From IMG/VR virus record IMGVR_UViG_2565956618_000007: 56,181 nucleotides of DNA. One strand, written 5' to 3'. Origin of the DNA: a virus (lineage: Duplodnaviria; Heunggongvirae; Uroviricota; Caudoviricetes). The notes below the pieces were generated by a model that saw nothing but the letters and a program-made list of their open reading frames with translations, was not told where the DNA came from and searched no databases. A program made the translations under genes and the position numbers. Numbering within the stretch: the stretch's first letter is position 1; each line of letters opens with the position of its first letter. Positions 45,043 to 51,057 of the stretch are shown here, piece after piece.

Positions 45043-45293
45043 TGAAAGAATACCGCTATTCCGGCCCGGCCAGCGGCGTCACGCTGTCGGACGGAACCGA
45101 AATCCTGCTCTGGCCGGGGAAGACGGTTTCCCTGCCGGAGGAGCATGACTACGTGAAGGTACTGGTGGCGCTGAAACATCTGACGCCGGTACCTGAAGAG
45201 ACTAAACCCGCCGGCACACCGGCTGTGCAGTCACCAAAGCGCAGAAGCAGCAGTGACAGCGAAGTGAAAACGGAGGACACCCATGGCAGCTAA
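45039..45293 (+). CDS. Small hypothetical protein (Mu gp38 position)
   Basis: 84-aa ORF between gp37-like and the sheath gene. Confidence 0.55.
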   Translation: MMKEYRYSGPASGVTLSDGTEILLWPGKTVSLPEEHDYVKVLVALKHLTPVPEETKPAGTPAVQSPKRRSSSDSEVKTEDTHGS

Positions 45294-46710
45294 CTATCTG
45301 CATGGTCCCGAAACCATTGAGGTGGAAAACGGTGCCCGCCCGGTTAAAACGGTGAAATCTGCCGTTATTGGCCTGATTGGTACCGCCCCGATGGGGGATG
45401 TCAATACGCTGGTACAGTGCCTGTCTGAGAAAGACGCAGCGGCATTTGGCAGCCAGTTCACCGGCTTTACCATTCCGCAGGCGCTGGATGCGATTTATGA
45501 CCATGGTGCAGGCACCGTTCTGGTCATTAACGTCCTCGACCCGGCGAAACATAAAACGGCGATCGAGGATGAGGTGGTTACCTTTGACAAATCGACAGGG
45601 CAGGCCAGACTGGCGCATCCGGTTGTCGCTAATGTGGTGGTGAAAAACAGTGAAGGCAGCACCACCCACACGGCGAACACGGACTACCGTGTTGATGCGC
45701 AGGCGGGTGTGCTCACGAACCTGGGCAAGGCTATTGAGGCCGGTGGCAGCGTGAAGGTGAGCTATGAGTACGCGGACCCGTCGAAGGTGACTGCGGCGGA
45801 CATCATCGGCGGGGTGAACAGCGCCGGAAACCGAACCGGCATGAAGCTGCTTAACGACAGCTTCAACCTGTACGGCTATTTCGCCAAAATTCTGATTGCG
45901 CCGGTGTTCTGCACCCAGAAGAGTGTCGCAGTTGAGCTTATCGCCATGGCAGAGAAGCTGGGCGCGGTAACCTACATTGATGCGCCTGTCGGTACCACCT
46001 TTGCACAGGCTCTGGCAGGTCGTGGCCCGGAAGGCACCATCAACTTCAATACCAGCTCCGACCGCGTCCGTCTGTGCTATCCGCATGTGAAGGTATATGA
46101 CCCGGTGACAAACACAGAGCGTCTGGAGCCGCTCAGCCAGCGTGCAGCAGGTCTGCGTGCCAGAGTCGATCTGGACAAGGGCTACTGGTGGTCATCCTCC
46201 AATCAGGAGATTCTGGGGATCACCGGCGTGGAGCGCCAGCTGTCCGCGATGATTGATGACCCGCAGAGTGAGGTGAACCTGCTTAACGAACAGGGGATCA
46301 CCACGGTATTCAGCAGTTACGGCAGCGGCCTTCGTCTGTGGGGTAACCGGACGGCAGCATGGCCAACGGTCACCCATATGCGTAACTTTGAGAACGTTCG
46401 CCGCACCGGTGATGTGATCAACGAGTCCATTCGTTATTTCAGCCAGCAGTACATCGACATGCCGATTACTCAGGCGCTGATTGATGCACTGACGGAGTCG
46501 GTCAACGCCTACGGTCGCAAAATGACTGGTGATGGTGCGGTACTGGGCTTCCGTTGCTGGTTTGATCCGGCCCGCAATCCGGAGACGGAGCTGGCCGCCG
46601 GGCACCTGTTGCTGAGCTACAAATATACGCCACCACCGCCGCTGGAGCGACTGACGTTTGAGACTGAGATCACCTCGGAATACCTGTTAACCCTGAAAGG
46701 GGGCAACTGA
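45283..46710 (+). CDS. Contractile tail sheath protein (Mu L-like)
   Basis: 475-aa ORF followed by the tube gene. Confidence 0.8.
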   Translation: MAANYLHGPETIEVENGARPVKTVKSAVIGLIGTAPMGDVNTLVQCLSEKDAAAFGSQFTGFTIPQALDAIYDHGAGTVLVINVLDPAKHKTAIEDEVVTFDKSTGQARLAHPVVANVVVKNSEGSTTHTANTDYRVDAQAGVLTNLGKAIEAGGSVKVSYEYADPSKVTAADIIGGVNSAGNRTGMKLLNDSFNLYGYFAKILIAPVFCTQKSVAVELIAMAEKLGAVTYIDAPVGTTFAQALAGRGPEGTINFNTSSDRVRLCYPHVKVYDPVTNTERLEPLSQRAAGLRARVDLDKGYWWSSSNQEILGITGVERQLSAMIDDPQSEVNLLNEQGITTVFSSYGSGLRLWGNRTAAWPTVTHMRNFENVRRTGDVINESIRYFSQQYIDMPITQALIDALTESVNAYGRKMTGDGAVLGFRCWFDPARNPETELAAGHLLLSYKYTPPPPLERLTFETEITSEYLLTLKGGN

Positions 46711-47231
46711 TGTCAAAGATTGAGATAAACCGCATCACGAATGCCAACATCTATCTGGATGGTACTAACCTGCTGGGACGGGCTGAGGAAGTTAAACTCC
46801 CCGATGTCTCCATGATTATGCAGGAACACAAGGCGCTGGGGATGGTGGGTAAGGTGGAACTCCCGGCTGGTTTTGACAAACTGGAAGGCGAAATCAAATG
46901 GAACAGCTTTTACCGCGATGCGATGCTGTCTGCCGCGAACCCGTACAGGTCGCTGGCACTGCAGTGTCGTTCCAGCGTCCAGCGCTACAGCTCGCAGGGG
47001 CTGATTGACGAAATCCCGCTGGTCACCTTCCTGACGATTATGTTCAAGAAGAACCCGCTGGGGACGTTCAAACAGCACGAGAACGCCGAGTTCTCCAGTA
47101 GCTTCACCTGCACGTATATCAGACAGGTACTGGATGGTGAAGAGCTGCTGCAACTGGACTATCTGGCCAACATCTTCCGGGTCGGCGGTGTTGATCAACT
47201 GACTGACTACCGTATCAATATCGGGGGCTGA
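46710..47231 (+). CDS. Tail tube protein (Mu M / P2 FII-like)
   Basis: 173-aa ORF directly after the sheath. Confidence 0.8.
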   Translation: MSKIEINRITNANIYLDGTNLLGRAEEVKLPDVSMIMQEHKALGMVGKVELPAGFDKLEGEIKWNSFYRDAMLSAANPYRSLALQCRSSVQRYSSQGLIDEIPLVTFLTIMFKKNPLGTFKQHENAEFSSSFTCTYIRQVLDGEELLQLDYLANIFRVGGVDQLTDYRINIGG

Positions 47232-47281
47232 CGGTGAGTGTTGAACTGACGGATAAAGGAGGACGATGTGCGGCACTGGGC

Positions 47282-47515
47282 ATGTCAAATGGTACGTGGT
47301 TTACCCTCCTTGATATTCCGGGGGTGGAAACCCTTTTTAATACCCGTAAAACCAATGACCCGATTGACTGCACACGTTCAAAGGCCCGCAAACTGGCGGA
47401 TTTGATTGAAGCATGGGAGCCTCCCGACCACTGGTTCTCCGGCATCGGCAAATCTGAGGGAAAGACGCTTCTCATCGCTTTCCTGCGTAACTGCAAGGGG
47501 TTTCGCACTTGCTGA
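47282..47515 (+). CDS. Small hypothetical protein
   Basis: 77-aa product from internal Met with RBS AAAGGAGGA upstream. Confidence 0.45.
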   Translation: MSNGTWFTLLDIPGVETLFNTRKTNDPIDCTRSKARKLADLIEAWEPPDHWFSGIGKSEGKTLLIAFLRNCKGFRTC

Positions 47516-47612
47516 CATCACAGGGGCTCCGGCCCCTTCTTCTTAATCTCCTTTAATATCCGTCACGCGCTTCTCCCGACATACTGCCCTGAACTTACAC
47601 AGGAGCACAATC

Positions 47613-47948
47613 ATGTCACAGACCCCATCCGATACTTTTAAATTGTCTTATCCCTTCACCACTGCTGCAGGTACCAGAATTGAGCTGGTTGAACTGAAAC
47701 GCCTGACGGTAAAAGACCTGAAGCAGGTGCGCAAAATCAGCAAAAACCCGGCAGACTGGGACGAACCGCTGATTGCCCGCAGTACTGGTCTTCTCCCGGA
47801 AGATCTCGACAATATGGATCTGGCTGATTACCTGCAGTTACAGAAACGATTTCAGCTCATCACGGGGATGGGTGAGAGCAACCAGGGCGCTGACGCAGGC
47901 GCAGGGGCTGCTGGCGAGATGGTTCCGGTTTCAGCCGGGGGAGATTGA
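47613..47948 (+). CDS. Tail assembly chaperone (zero-frame product)
   Basis: 111-aa acidic ORF with RBS CAGGAG, between tube and tape measure. Confidence 0.65.
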   Translation: MSQTPSDTFKLSYPFTTAAGTRIELVELKRLTVKDLKQVRKISKNPADWDEPLIARSTGLLPEDLDNMDLADYLQLQKRFQLITGMGESNQGADAGAGAAGEMVPVSAGGD

Positions 47949-48030
47949 TGCCCTCGATACTGACGATCTGGAGATGTGGCTGGAGCAGGCTGAAGAGCAA
48001 ATAAAAAGCGAGTACGGCGACAAATCATAG
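47613..48030 (+). other. Putative frameshift-extended tail assembly chaperone (+1 frame continuation ending at 48030)
   Basis: A second ORF overlaps the chaperone 3' end in the +1 frame and encodes an acidic tail (…QPGEIDALDTDDLEMWLEQAEEQIKSEYGDKS); overlap includes a G-run (CCGGGGGAG). Confidence 0.35.
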
Positions 48031-48105
48031 TACAGACAGCCGCCAGTAGCGGCTGTTCTGCGTTATCCCCTCACGTCTTTTCACCTTCCCCGGAGGTTAA
48101 CCACT

Positions 48106-51057
48106 ATGTCGGGACAGTTTTCAGTCGGCGTTGTTATCGGCGGGATGATTGGCAGCACATTCCGTTCTGCAATGAGCGGTACCCGCCGTGCGCTTGATTC
48201 CCTGAGCGATACCTCACGCCGCCTGCAGGAACGTCAGAACGCTTTAACCCGTGCAACAGAACGTTATGGTCAACTGGGTTCTTCCCGGATGCAGCATCTC
48301 AACAGCGAGCTGCTGCGGGTAAGCCGCACCATGGAGCAAATTGAGCGCCAGCAGCGCCGTCTGTCAGCGGCATCCGCTACCAGTGATGCGCTGAAAGCTA
48401 ACCGCATGGCGCTGTATGGTCAGGGGATTGAAGCGTATGGCATGGCACAGACTGTTTATCATACGGTTTCCCCTGCCGTTCAGCAGTCCATGTCTTTTCA
48501 GGACAAAATGATTGATATGTCGATCACCGCAAAATATGACAATAAAACGCGGGATGCACTTGCCGGACAGATAAAAGGCTGGGCGCTTAAATACAATCAG
48601 TATCAGGATGAGCTGCAGGAGGCGGTGGGTTCACTCATCAGCGACAATATTGATAATGTGTCAGATATCGGTTTTCTGATGCCGGATATTGCCCGCGCGG
48701 CAACGGCAACACGCACGTCTGCTCAGGACTGGGCAAAAGTGGCCGCAGTCTGGCAAAACTCCCTGAAAGGTGCGGCCAGAGATTTTGGTGCCGTTCAGAA
48801 TATTATGGCTTATGCCGGTGACCAGGGGTCATTTGAAATCCCGGATCAGGTCAAGTGGATGCAGTCCCTGGCCCCAATGATGGCGGGTATTGCCAGTGGA
48901 AAAGAGGCTGTTGCTGAAATCGGGGCCAGTCTCCAGATAGCAAAAATCGGTGCAGGTTCCACCGACGAAGCAGCCAATAATTTTAAAAACTTTCTTACCA
49001 AAATTTTTGCCCGCGATACTCAGAAACAGTTTGCTGATCTGGGTATTGATTTGCAGGGATCTATTGCGAGTTATAAAGCTGCGGGGATCTCTCCGATTGA
49101 AGGGATGTTGAGTGTTATAGAACGTTACCTCAATGCCAAAAGCCCCGAAGCGCTGGCCGGCTTCAAATCAGCCATGAAAATAAAGAATGATACGGCAAGA
49201 GATGAGGCACTTCAGGCTCTGGCGAAAAACTTTGGTCTGGGCGATATGTTCGCGGATATGCAGGTCATGGCATTTATCCGCCCGATGCTGGCCAACATGG
49301 ACAGATATCGAGAGATCCGTGCCGGTGCTCTCAGGGCTGCGGATAACGATTTGCTTGCCAGTGCTTATGATCAGCGGCTGAAATCTCCCCTTGAAGCCAC
49401 TAAAACACTTATGGTCAGCAGTCGCGATCTGGCAATTACGCTGGGCGATCAATTAGCTCCATCTTTTATTTCTTTGACTCAGGAACTGCTTCCACTCATT
49501 CAGGGGGCAAAACACTGGGTAGCGACTCACCCGCAATTTGTCAGTGGGGCTTTTAAGCTCATCAGTGCGCTCCTTGCGATTAAGATAGCGACTGTTGGTC
49601 TCAAACTGGGGCTGAATCTCCTTATTTCCCCCTTTGTAAGTGTCTGGAAAAATGCTGTTTTACTTCGGGCCAACTGGCTTCGTCTGTCGCTCGCACTGGG
49701 GCAAGGCGGTAAGCTCCGCTGGCTGGTGACCGGATTTAGCGCCGTCGCCAGAGGAGCCAGAACACTGAGTGGCGTGCTCTCCGGGGGGCTGGTTCGCGGA
49801 ATTATGCTCGCCGGACGTGCTGTTCTCTGGATTGGACGTGCGCTGATGATGAATCCCATCGGTCTCGTTATCACCGCTGTCGCGGCAGCAGCTTACCTTA
49901 TCTACCGCAACTGGGGGGCAGTCAGTGGCTGGTTTAAACAGCGCTGGGCAGACATTCAGGAAGCCTTTAACGGCGGCATTGTGGGAATTGGTAAGTTACT
50001 GATTAACTGGTCGCCGGCAGGCCTGCTCTATAAAGCCTTTGCGGCTGCGCTGAAATATTTCGGCGTTGCTCTGCCGGCAAAGTTCACCGACTTCGGTGGC
50101 CATCTTATCGACGGTCTGATTAACGGTATCAAAAACAAATGGGGGTCGCTCAAATCCAGTGTAACCGGAATGGGTGACAGCATCAGTAGCTGGTTTAAAC
50201 AGTGCTGGGCTGACATTCAGGAAGCCTTTAACGGCGGTATCGCGGGAACTGGTAAGCTGCTGATTAACTGGTCGCCGGCAGGTCTGCTCTATAAAGCCTT
50301 TGCAGCTGCGCTGAAATATCTTGGTGTTGATCTGCCGGCAAAGTTCACCGACTTCGGTGGCCATCTTATCGACGGTCTGATTAACGGTATCAAAAACAAA
50401 TGGGGGTCGCTCAAATCCAGTGTAACCGGAATGGGTGACAGCATCAGTGGCTGGTTCAGTGAAAAGCTGGGTATTCATTCGCCGAGCCGCGTGTTTATGG
50501 GCTTTGGTGACAATATCGCGCAGGGGGCCGCCATTGGCCTGCAGCGGACCACTCCGCTTGCAGCTCTGGCCGGGCAGCGAATGGCCAGTGAACTGCTCCC
50601 CAGAATGCCCGTGAGCATTCAGGGGCCAGAAATACGGGATAACACTTCAGGTGTTCGCTTCAGTATGCCGTTGCCCGATATCAACGGGTTTATGTCGTCT
50701 GCTAAAAATGCGATCGGAGCCGTAATCAATAGTTTGTCTTCCATGCCCGCTATCCCGCTCTCCACCCGGACATCGATTTTACCAGGGCAACGTCTGGCAA
50801 ATGAGATGACACCGGATGTTCCCCGTATCCCCTCGCCTGAAATCATGGCTGCCGGATATTCAGGCCGTGGTGCAGCTGCAACCGGCGGTGGAACGTCTGG
50901 TGGTATCCAGGTCAGCTTTAATCCTCAGTTTTTCCTCAATGGCAGGGAAACCACAGCGCCTGCAGGACTGACTGGTGCTCTGAATATGAGTCTGCATGAG
51001 CTGGAAAAAATGCTGGAGCGTCTGCTGGCTCAGAAACAACGTAAGGAGTACCGCTGA
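48106..51057 (+). CDS. Tail tape measure protein
   Basis: 983-aa product with RBS GGAGG, alpha-helical N-terminus, hydrophobic central segments; contains a tandem 87-codon duplication. Confidence 0.85.
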   Translation: MSGQFSVGVVIGGMIGSTFRSAMSGTRRALDSLSDTSRRLQERQNALTRATERYGQLGSSRMQHLNSELLRVSRTMEQIERQQRRLSAASATSDALKANRMALYGQGIEAYGMAQTVYHTVSPAVQQSMSFQDKMIDMSITAKYDNKTRDALAGQIKGWALKYNQYQDELQEAVGSLISDNIDNVSDIGFLMPDIARAATATRTSAQDWAKVAAVWQNSLKGAARDFGAVQNIMAYAGDQGSFEIPDQVKWMQSLAPMMAGIASGKEAVAEIGASLQIAKIGAGSTDEAANNFKNFLTKIFARDTQKQFADLGIDLQGSIASYKAAGISPIEGMLSVIERYLNAKSPEALAGFKSAMKIKNDTARDEALQALAKNFGLGDMFADMQVMAFIRPMLANMDRYREIRAGALRAADNDLLASAYDQRLKSPLEATKTLMVSSRDLAITLGDQLAPSFISLTQELLPLIQGAKHWVATHPQFVSGAFKLISALLAIKIATVGLKLGLNLLISPFVSVWKNAVLLRANWLRLSLALGQGGKLRWLVTGFSAVARGARTLSGVLSGGLVRGIMLAGRAVLWIGRALMMNPIGLVITAVAAAAYLIYRNWGAVSGWFKQRWADIQEAFNGGIVGIGKLLINWSPAGLLYKAFAAALKYFGVALPAKFTDFGGHLIDGLINGIKNKWGSLKSSVTGMGDSISSWFKQCWADIQEAFNGGIAGTGKLLINWSPAGLLYKAFAAALKYLGVDLPAKFTDFGGHLIDGLINGIKNKWGSLKSSVTGMGDSISGWFSEKLGIHSPSRVFMGFGDNIAQGAAIGLQRTTPLAALAGQRMASELLPRMPVSIQGPEIRDNTSGVRFSMPLPDINGFMSSAKNAIGAVINSLSSMPAIPLSTRTSILPGQRLANEMTPDVPRIPSPEIMAAGYSGRGAAATGGGTSGGIQVSFNPQFFLNGRETTAPAGLTGALNMSLHELEKMLERLLAQKQRKEYR
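49930..50451 (+). repeat. Tandem in-frame duplication, 2 x 261 bp (87 codons), inside the tape measure gene
   Basis: Protein residues 609-695 and 696-782 are near-identical (WFKQRWADIQEAFNGGIVGIGKLLINWSPAGLLYKAF… vs WFKQCWADIQEAFNGGIAGTGKLLINWSPAGLLYKAF…). Confidence 0.9.

Follow-up and report, generated by a model that had tools for sequence, protein, structure and literature searches.

A candidate +1 ribosomal frameshift at a conserved UUU_C site in the P2-type tail assembly chaperone gene of a BcepMu-like prophage

Frameshifts in the tail assembly chaperone genes of phages are recognised in the -1, -2 and +1 directions (PMC5009743, PMC10885494). In lambda, gpG is the short and gpGT the long product; they have a common N-terminus, and recoding just upstream of the tape-measure gene fixes the ratio between them (PMC5009743). 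The GenBank record of P2 lists a gpE of 91 residues and a gpE+E' of 142, the latter produced by a -1 shift at GGT_TTT_TTG, and the homologous chaperone of Mu has an annotated and verified -2 shift on CGG_GGG_CGA (PMC5009743). For bacteria, passages in PMC5009743 and PMC3498833 single out UUU_Ynn as especially prone to +1 shifts. Here we analyze the tail assembly chaperone gene in a 56,181-nucleotide stretch of viral DNA (IMG/VR record IMGVR_UViG_2565956618_000007, Caudoviricetes; the window, below). A conserved ribosomal frameshift very probably yields a long form of this chaperone. With a probability of roughly 0.78, we attribute it to a +1 shift at CGA_UUU_C that would make an analogue of P2 gpE+E'. 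We are more certain that some recoding leads into the +1 frame upstream of position 47886 than that it happens at this particular site. Judging from sequence comparisons, the best explanation is that the locus belongs to a BcepMu-like (Bcepmuvirus) prophage and encodes a P2-type tail assembly chaperone in a short and a long version.

The short form is the product of open reading frame (ORF) 1 (Table 1). It matches Pfam Phage_TAC_7 (PF10109; E-value 5.5e-21, 74.8 bits against a cut-off of 25) over residues 8–81 (nucleotides 47634–47855). This family, named 'Phage tail assembly chaperone proteins, E, or 41 or 14', is the one to which P2 gpE and Mu gp41 belong. The +1 frame is open from 47773 to a TAG at 48028–48030 and overlaps ORF1 by 176 nucleotides. 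An earlier note on this DNA had described a 111-codon ORF between the tube and tape-measure genes, overlapped at its 3' end by a +1-frame ORF that runs through 48030 and encodes an acidic extension. The coordinates and the Pfam matches of the neighboring genes confirm the first part, and the sequence bears out the second, since the extension reads EIDALDTDDLEMWLEQAEEQIKSEYGDKS beyond a run of G residues (the G-run). The note had also taken the locus for a chaperone frameshift of the G/GT type with no obvious canonical slippery heptamer. Its place between the tube and tape-measure genes agrees with this, and no canonical heptamer is present.

The extension in the +1 frame resembles the E' domain of P2. 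It matches phrog_8286, a family of ORF calls of about 54 residues (E-value 3e-34), and Pfam Phage_P2_GpE (PF06528) at an E-value of 0.0015 and 18.4 bits, under the cut-off of 23. Aligned with hhalign, 99 unique extensions match the P2 E' arm with a probability of 88.7% and an E-value of 2.6e-6. The most conserved part of E', LLARWFRFQP, lies within the Pfam GpE match, and a Trp encoded in the +1 frame at 47869–47871 is invariant. Where the NCBI Prokaryotic Genome Annotation Pipeline (PGAP) calls E' as a gene, it labels the product 'GpE family phage tail protein'. Together, these profile matches indicate that the extension is a homologue of the P2 E' domain. Neither the short nor the long product has a match in NCBIfam, and a sequence search of the PDB returned none at E-values up to 1.

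We drew on IMG/VR, on GenBank phages and on GTDB, with a single genome for each species, to assemble 187 loci that contain both domains, and placed the domains with hidden Markov models (HMMs) in the three forward frames. The earlier note had made its proposal depend in part on conservation of the +1 ORF in relatives, and the comparison bears this out. Relative to TAC_7, the frame of E' is +1 in 179 of the 187 loci, -1 in four and unchanged in four. The +1-type loci come from Enterobacterales, Burkholderia, Ralstonia, Pandoraea, Pseudomonas and others; the -1 cases are P2 and three Pasteurellaceae elements. Every same-frame case is explained by a single-base deletion. From UUU to the E' stop the distance is exactly 178 nucleotides in 112 of 140 loci, at nucleotide identities down to 58%, and in none of the loci does a stop interrupt the +1 frame between UUU and E'. 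This degree of conservation indicates that the frame overlap is beyond chance.

Two groups of exceptions deserve description. The Pasteurellaceae elements (L086, L148 and L149), with E' in the -1 frame, carry a canonical heptamer, either A_AAG_GGA or G_GGA_AAG. In loci L091, L078 and L092 and in proteins P0007, P0009, P0023 and P0060, a single-base deletion fuses the two frames. In L091 it lies five codons 5' of TTT; in L078 and L092 it immediately precedes the G-run, and in P0007 and P0009 it is inside the run. These may be true mutations or homopolymer sequencing errors.

Stop codons in the two frames bound the place of the shift. In 103 sequences, and then in 38 more, the +1 frame opens no later than 11 nucleotides before the end of UUU (47850–47852), and the earliest stops in frame 0, the frame of ORF1, fall 24–30 nucleotides past it. 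The interval that is open in both frames in all relatives spans about 35 nucleotides, from -11 to +24 around the end of UUU, and nothing within it is invariant except a TTT in frame 0 and the C that follows. This TTT_C is present in each of the 178 +1-type loci whose N-domain is complete, in contexts that include CGA_TTT_CAG (window), CGA_TTT_CTG, CAC_TTT_CGY, TCC_TTT_CGC (BcepMu), GTG_TTT_CGG and GCA_TTT_CAA. The motif is kept even in phages with a G+C content of 61–67%, in whose neighboring genes TTT makes up 0–18% of Phe codons. Multiplying the background frequencies of TTT_C over 12 clusters (<80% identity) gives about 1e-15, a crude figure, as the clusters are not fully independent. Positions 47847–47854 show zero substitutions in 77 unique sequences, compared with 3–12 at nearby third positions. 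Positions 47849 and 47852, the third bases of CGA and UUU, never change in this set, which the coding of neither frame explains. The Phe encoded by UUU (F80) is invariant in a protein alignment that includes P2 gpE+E', and its counterpart in P2 is the Phe of T_TTT_TTG.

The pattern of substitutions changes at the same place. We counted synonymous and non-synonymous changes by Fitch parsimony on a neighbor-joining tree of the 77 unique gap-free sequences. Upstream of 47850 their ratio is 462:220 in frame 0 and 60:635 in the +1 frame. Between 47886 and 47933 it is 10:98 in frame 0 and 78:23 in the +1 frame, and over 47934–47948 it is 1:27 and 21:4, respectively. The coding phase changes over at UUU. 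In the intervening stretch, 47853–47885, the ratio of non-synonymous to synonymous changes is 2.6 in frame 0, 1.4 in the +1 frame and 6.5 in the third, a partial constraint in two frames as expected from two products read in two frames.

Selection on the amino-acid sequence is not apparent over the final 21 or so codons of the 111-codon ORF, and ORF1 is 90, 104, 106, 111 or 113 residues long in relatives. A common Escherichia coli allele (L022 and L023; protein P0026, listed on 914 contigs) is 98% identical to the window and has a CAG-to-TAG change at the equivalent of 47883, which puts a stop at 47883–47885 and cuts the short form to 90 residues. The underlying C-to-T change is nonsense in frame 0 and synonymous (ACC to ACT) in the +1 frame. 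These data suggest that the frame-0 tail past residue 90 is dispensable.

The same evidence bears on the idea that the overlap has no function, being either a prophage gene pair in decay or a frame left open by chance, with the short product alone of importance. Some copies do carry nonsense or frameshift mutations (L114, L083 and L091), and the region is found as a prophage in 637 of 5426 complete E. coli genomes. However, the +1 frame is under strong purifying selection among relatives that, at identities down to 58%, are not recent clonal copies. The frame relation is kept in 179 loci from several bacterial orders, and the extension is homologous to the essential E' arm of P2. We regard a functionless overlap as hardly credible.

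E' might instead be a separate small protein, made by internal initiation in ORF1 with no frameshift, for example at the GTG at 47872 that PGAP uses. RefSeq has such a stand-alone coding sequence, 'GpE family phage tail protein', equivalent to 47872–48030 in some E. coli genomes, and the calls that make up phrog_8286 are likewise stand-alone. However, no +1-frame start codon is conserved from UUU to the E' core: 17% of sequences have GTG, TTG or ATG at 47872, and no column exceeds 43%. Conservation in the +1 frame, including the invariant Trp, reaches upstream of the candidate starts. In all loci, moreover, the +1 frame extends uninterrupted back to UUU; a stop often closes it just 11 nucleotides before that codon, and none closes it after. 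Finally, P2 E' has no ribosome-binding site and is described as a frameshift extension of E (PMC3931495). Internal initiation therefore strikes us as quite improbable.

The earlier note had pointed to the G-run (CCGGGGGAG), which lies about 85 bases downstream of CGA_UUU_C, as the only candidate shift site, and had read the direction as +1 or -2 rather than the usual -1. A shift at GCC_GGG_GGA (47934–47942), either +1 from GGG to GGG or -2 as in Mu, would give a product reading ...VSAG(G)EIDALD.... The verified Mu site lends this some weight, as does the fact that ORF1 of the window spans the G5 run, which would permit re-pairing in the +1 frame. In addition, the one-nucleotide deletions of P0007, P0009, L078 and L092, at or beside the run, produce exactly such a fusion, and a distant relative, L146, lacks TTT_C and has CGG_GGG_CTT. 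We note that the full sequence in L146, a Gallionellaceae metagenome-assembled genome, is CTT_CGG_GGG_CTT, which resembles the Mu -2 site.

Nevertheless, the G-run fails as the shift site on several grounds. In most relatives ORF1 has 104 or 106 codons and ends, upstream of the run, at a TAG equivalent to 47931–47933, and the 90-codon allele likewise stops before it. The run varies between G5 and G4 through +1-synonymous changes of a CCN codon (CCG, CCT and CCA), and selection is not keeping it as a slip site. The 50 nucleotides upstream of it are under +1-frame constraint, also in the 17 sequences whose ORF1 spans the run (13:8 in the +1 frame against 4:20 in frame 0, over 47886–47933). A shift there would also drop LLARWFRFQP and leave an extension of 29 residues, compared with 58 from UUU_C. 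With frame-0 stops before the G-run and +1 constraint upstream of it, the shift is placed upstream, at CGA_UUU_C, and we consider it very improbable that the G-run is the main site. The +1 direction of the earlier note stands, in 179 of 187 loci. At UUU a -2 event is implausible because the codons two bases back (GAU, UGU, CAU and CCU) cannot pair with tRNA-Phe.

We also examined and rejected other sites and events. The G4 run in ACG_GGG_ATG (47862–47870) is ACT_GGG_CTG in relatives and would allow only a -1 shift. GCA_GGG_GCT (47901–47909) is disrupted in relatives by +1-synonymous changes (GGC, GGT and GGA). Transcriptional slippage was set aside, as the sole conserved homopolymer at the site, T3, is too short.

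We propose the following model for a shift at CGA_UUU_C. Most ribosomes would stay in frame 0 and make the 111-residue short form, which consists of the TAC_7 domain and a dispensable tail. A minority would shift +1 when UUU is in the P site, where the peptidyl-tRNA-Phe (anticodon GAA) would leave UUU, read by a G·U wobble, and re-pair with UUC by Watson-Crick pairing. Translation would resume at AGC (47854) and continue for 58 codons to the TAG. The predicted long form has 138 residues, with residues 1–80 of ORF1 followed by SSSRGWVRATRALTQAQGLLARWFRFQPGEIDALDTDDLEMWLEQAEEQIKSEYGDKS (SSSRGW...EYGDKS). Homology with P2 gpE and gpE+E', and analogy with lambda gpG and gpGT, suggest that the short and the long form alike would bind the tape-measure protein. 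In the long form, the rarer of the two, the E' arm may then recruit the tube protein, so that a tail tube of the right length is built.

The same product could arise in the interval 47842–47879 by another event, in which Phe-tRNA binds UUC directly or a neighboring codon shifts. In the former variant, tRNA-Arg(ICG) would sit on CGA in the P site, held by an I·A wobble, during out-of-frame decoding. The codon before UUU (47847–47849) offers some grounds for this: its third base is unvaried in the 77 unique sequences, and CGA is invariant in the enterobacterial and betaproteobacterial lineages despite making up 11% of Arg codons in flanking genes. Weak pairing in the P site or E site promotes +1 shifts. 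PMC3498833 discusses effects of the E site on frameshifting. Since the resulting protein would not differ, sequence data do not tell the events apart. Against such an event, CGA is kept only in those lineages and is replaced elsewhere, as in GC-rich phages, by TCC, GCC, GTG, GCA, CAC and others, while TTT_C is universal. The codon preceding CGA is variable, which leaves no alternative slippery codon. We therefore judge a different event to be unlikely, and P-site slippage of tRNA-Phe from UUU to UUC remains our preferred reading.

Several observations weigh against slippage at CGA_UUU_C. The frame-0 A-site codon after UUU is CAG in the window and CAA, CAT, CTG or CGN elsewhere. CAG is not a rare codon in E. 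coli, and the pause usually invoked for +1 shifts is thus unexplained. RNAalifold found no conserved downstream RNA structure in 24 diverse sequences (z -0.6 to +0.7 near the site). The window on its own folds near the site with a z of -1.7, which 12 of 200 shuffled sequences equal. Rfam has no match, and no upstream Shine-Dalgarno-like element is evident near the shift site. Replacement of CGA in GC-rich lineages makes a stimulatory role for this codon, by I·A wobble in the E or P site, speculative. Selection over 47854–47885 is ambiguous between frame 0 and the +1 frame, and a minor second shift may occur at the G-run in this window, where ORF1 spans it. Finally, the 138-residue product and its proportion are predictions from the sequence.

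We also considered a broader possibility, which we hold only tentatively. CGA_UUU_C might be the minimal, structure-free +1 cassette of a large unannotated clade of P2-type E/E' chaperones, one that includes a prophage carried by roughly 12% of the complete genomes of E. coli. An invariant, rare CGA would stimulate the shift from the E or P site through its I·A wobble. The family might then have switched among -1 (T_TTT_TTG and G_GGA_AAG), +1 (UUU_C) and probably -2 (CGG_GGG_C) recoding at or near one hinge. If true, this would provide a natural series for what sets the direction and efficiency of frameshifting.

Table 1. Features of the chaperone locus and neighboring tail genes, in window positions
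Feature	Position	Strand	Remarks
Sheath gene	45283–46710		
Tail tube gene, P2 FII type	46710–47231	+	Upstream neighbor; Pfam Phage_tube, E-value 2.9e-53
Small ORF (93 residues)	47234–47515		Between tube and chaperone genes
Shine-Dalgarno-like AGGAG	47601–47605	+	7 nucleotides 5' of the ORF1 ATG; read from the sequence
ORF1 (chaperone)	47613–47948	+	111 codons; ATG at 47613, TGA at 47946–47948
Proposed +1 shift site CGA_UUU_C	47847–47853	+	UUU 47850–47852, UUC 47851–47853
Stretch apparently read in both frames	47854–47885	+	Short-form tail, long-form linker
+1-frame coding arm, E' analogue	47854–48030	+	58 codons and TAG
Frame-0 tail of ORF1	47886–47948	+	Stop variable among relatives; no amino-acid constraint detectable
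G-run	47935–47943	+	Codes Pro-Gly-Glu of E' in the +1 frame; not a conserved shift site
Stable hairpin	48036–48056	+	Between E' stop and tape-measure start; -18.1 kcal/mol, z -3.95
Tape-measure protein gene	48106–51057	+	Downstream neighbor; Pfam PhageMin_Tail, E-value 2e-20
gpU homologue	starts 51057		

The chaperone gene is part of a P2-type contractile-tail module at about 45.3 to 52 kb of the window (Table 1). Over 1.5 kb around the overlap, the window is 99.8% identical to Escherichia phage PhiKM (Bcepmuvirus), whose head genes are Mu-like and whose tail genes are P2-like. The 93-residue ORF upstream of the chaperone gene matches phrog_1239 (E-value 5e-48) and, below the cut-off, DUF7739; P2 has no gene at this position. 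A GC-rich, terminator-like hairpin with a T-rich tail (47522–47537) lies 3' of this ORF. The hairpin downstream of E', ACAGCCGC-CAGTA-GCGGCTGT, lies inside a 75-nucleotide spacer; its stem is kept in relatives, and its loop is variable. It could be an attenuator or an mRNA-stability element. Within the tape-measure gene, 49922–50456 holds a tandem duplication of 261 bp in two copies of 94% identity, or an 87-residue repeat, which would give a longer tape measure. In the PhiKM record, a sequencing gap falls where this duplication lies.

In every record that we examined, the long form of the chaperone is unannotated. The PhiKM and KP12 records annotate the short ORF alone, and RefSeq E. coli genomes list two genes, one for a 'phage tail assembly protein' and one for a 'GpE family phage tail protein'. 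The GenBank record of BcepMu (AY539836; L004 4603–5364) assigns the frameshift to gp42 and gp43 as a G/T pair. Our comparisons indicate that the homologous pair is instead gp41 (TAC_7) and the C-terminal part of gp42, joined by a +1 shift at TCC_TTT_CGC (L004 4819–4827). We found no description of this +1 site in BcepMu-like phages in the literature, of which our coverage was incomplete, so that an earlier description is possible. Taken as a rule, NNN_UUU_C would correct the annotation of about 180 loci. It would also add a well-supported bacterial example of a UUU_C +1 shift with no obvious stimulator, and it brings together three recoding directions in one homologous chaperone family. The device itself is ordinary: chaperone frameshifts, their +1 variants and UUU_C sites are all known, and the locus raises no new question.

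Among the closest known systems is gpE/gpE+E' of P2 (FETUD tail operon). It has the same TAC_7 N-terminus and the same GpE/E' extension and is encoded between the FII tube and tape-measure genes. Its shift falls on the Phe codon that ends the TAC_7 domain, homologous to that of the window, and neither P2 (PMC3091744) nor the window has a known stimulatory RNA structure. In contrast to P2, the window has E' in the +1 frame, UUU_C with no T-run, an overlap with frame 0 of about 95 nucleotides, and the hairpin-bearing spacer that separates E' from the tape-measure gene. By protein homology the locus is a member of the P2 gpE/E+E' family, but it is not of the P2 recoding type, a -1 shift on T_TTT_TTG (T6G or T7G).

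Mu gp41/Mu_56 falls under the same Pfam family name, its second frame is also +1/-2, and the window has a Mu-like genome. However, the verified -2 site of Mu, a frame-0 GGG with GG before it and a rare codon after it, lies close to the frame-0 stop, and the G-run of the window is in another register. HMMs built from the window's chaperone family did not detect the Mu locus. The window locus is not of the Mu type of -2 recoding. The lambda gpG/gpGT pair occupies the same gene position, but it has no sequence similarity to the window chaperone and shifts -1 on G_GGA_AAG.

The site itself has its counterparts in other genes and hosts. Influenza A PA-X is made by a +1 shift through P-site slippage on UCC_UUU_CGU (PMC3498833). 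PA-X, the amalgavirus UUU_CGN and E. coli UUU_Ynn sites share with the window the same tetranucleotide and the proposed move of tRNA-Phe from UUU to UUC (PMC5009743, PMC3498833). In PA-X the rare A-site codon CGU is thought to pause the ribosome, whereas the A-site codon here is usually CAG, CAA or CTG; the BcepMu homologue, TCC_TTT_CGC, is nearly the PA-X cassette. In haloarchaeal myoviruses of the HF1 group, a +1 shift at TTT-CGC has been proposed for the chaperone pair from conservation alone (PMC7230728). These viruses are archaeal and their site is near the frame-0 stop, but, as in the window, a TTT_C +1 site lies between the tube and tape-measure genes.

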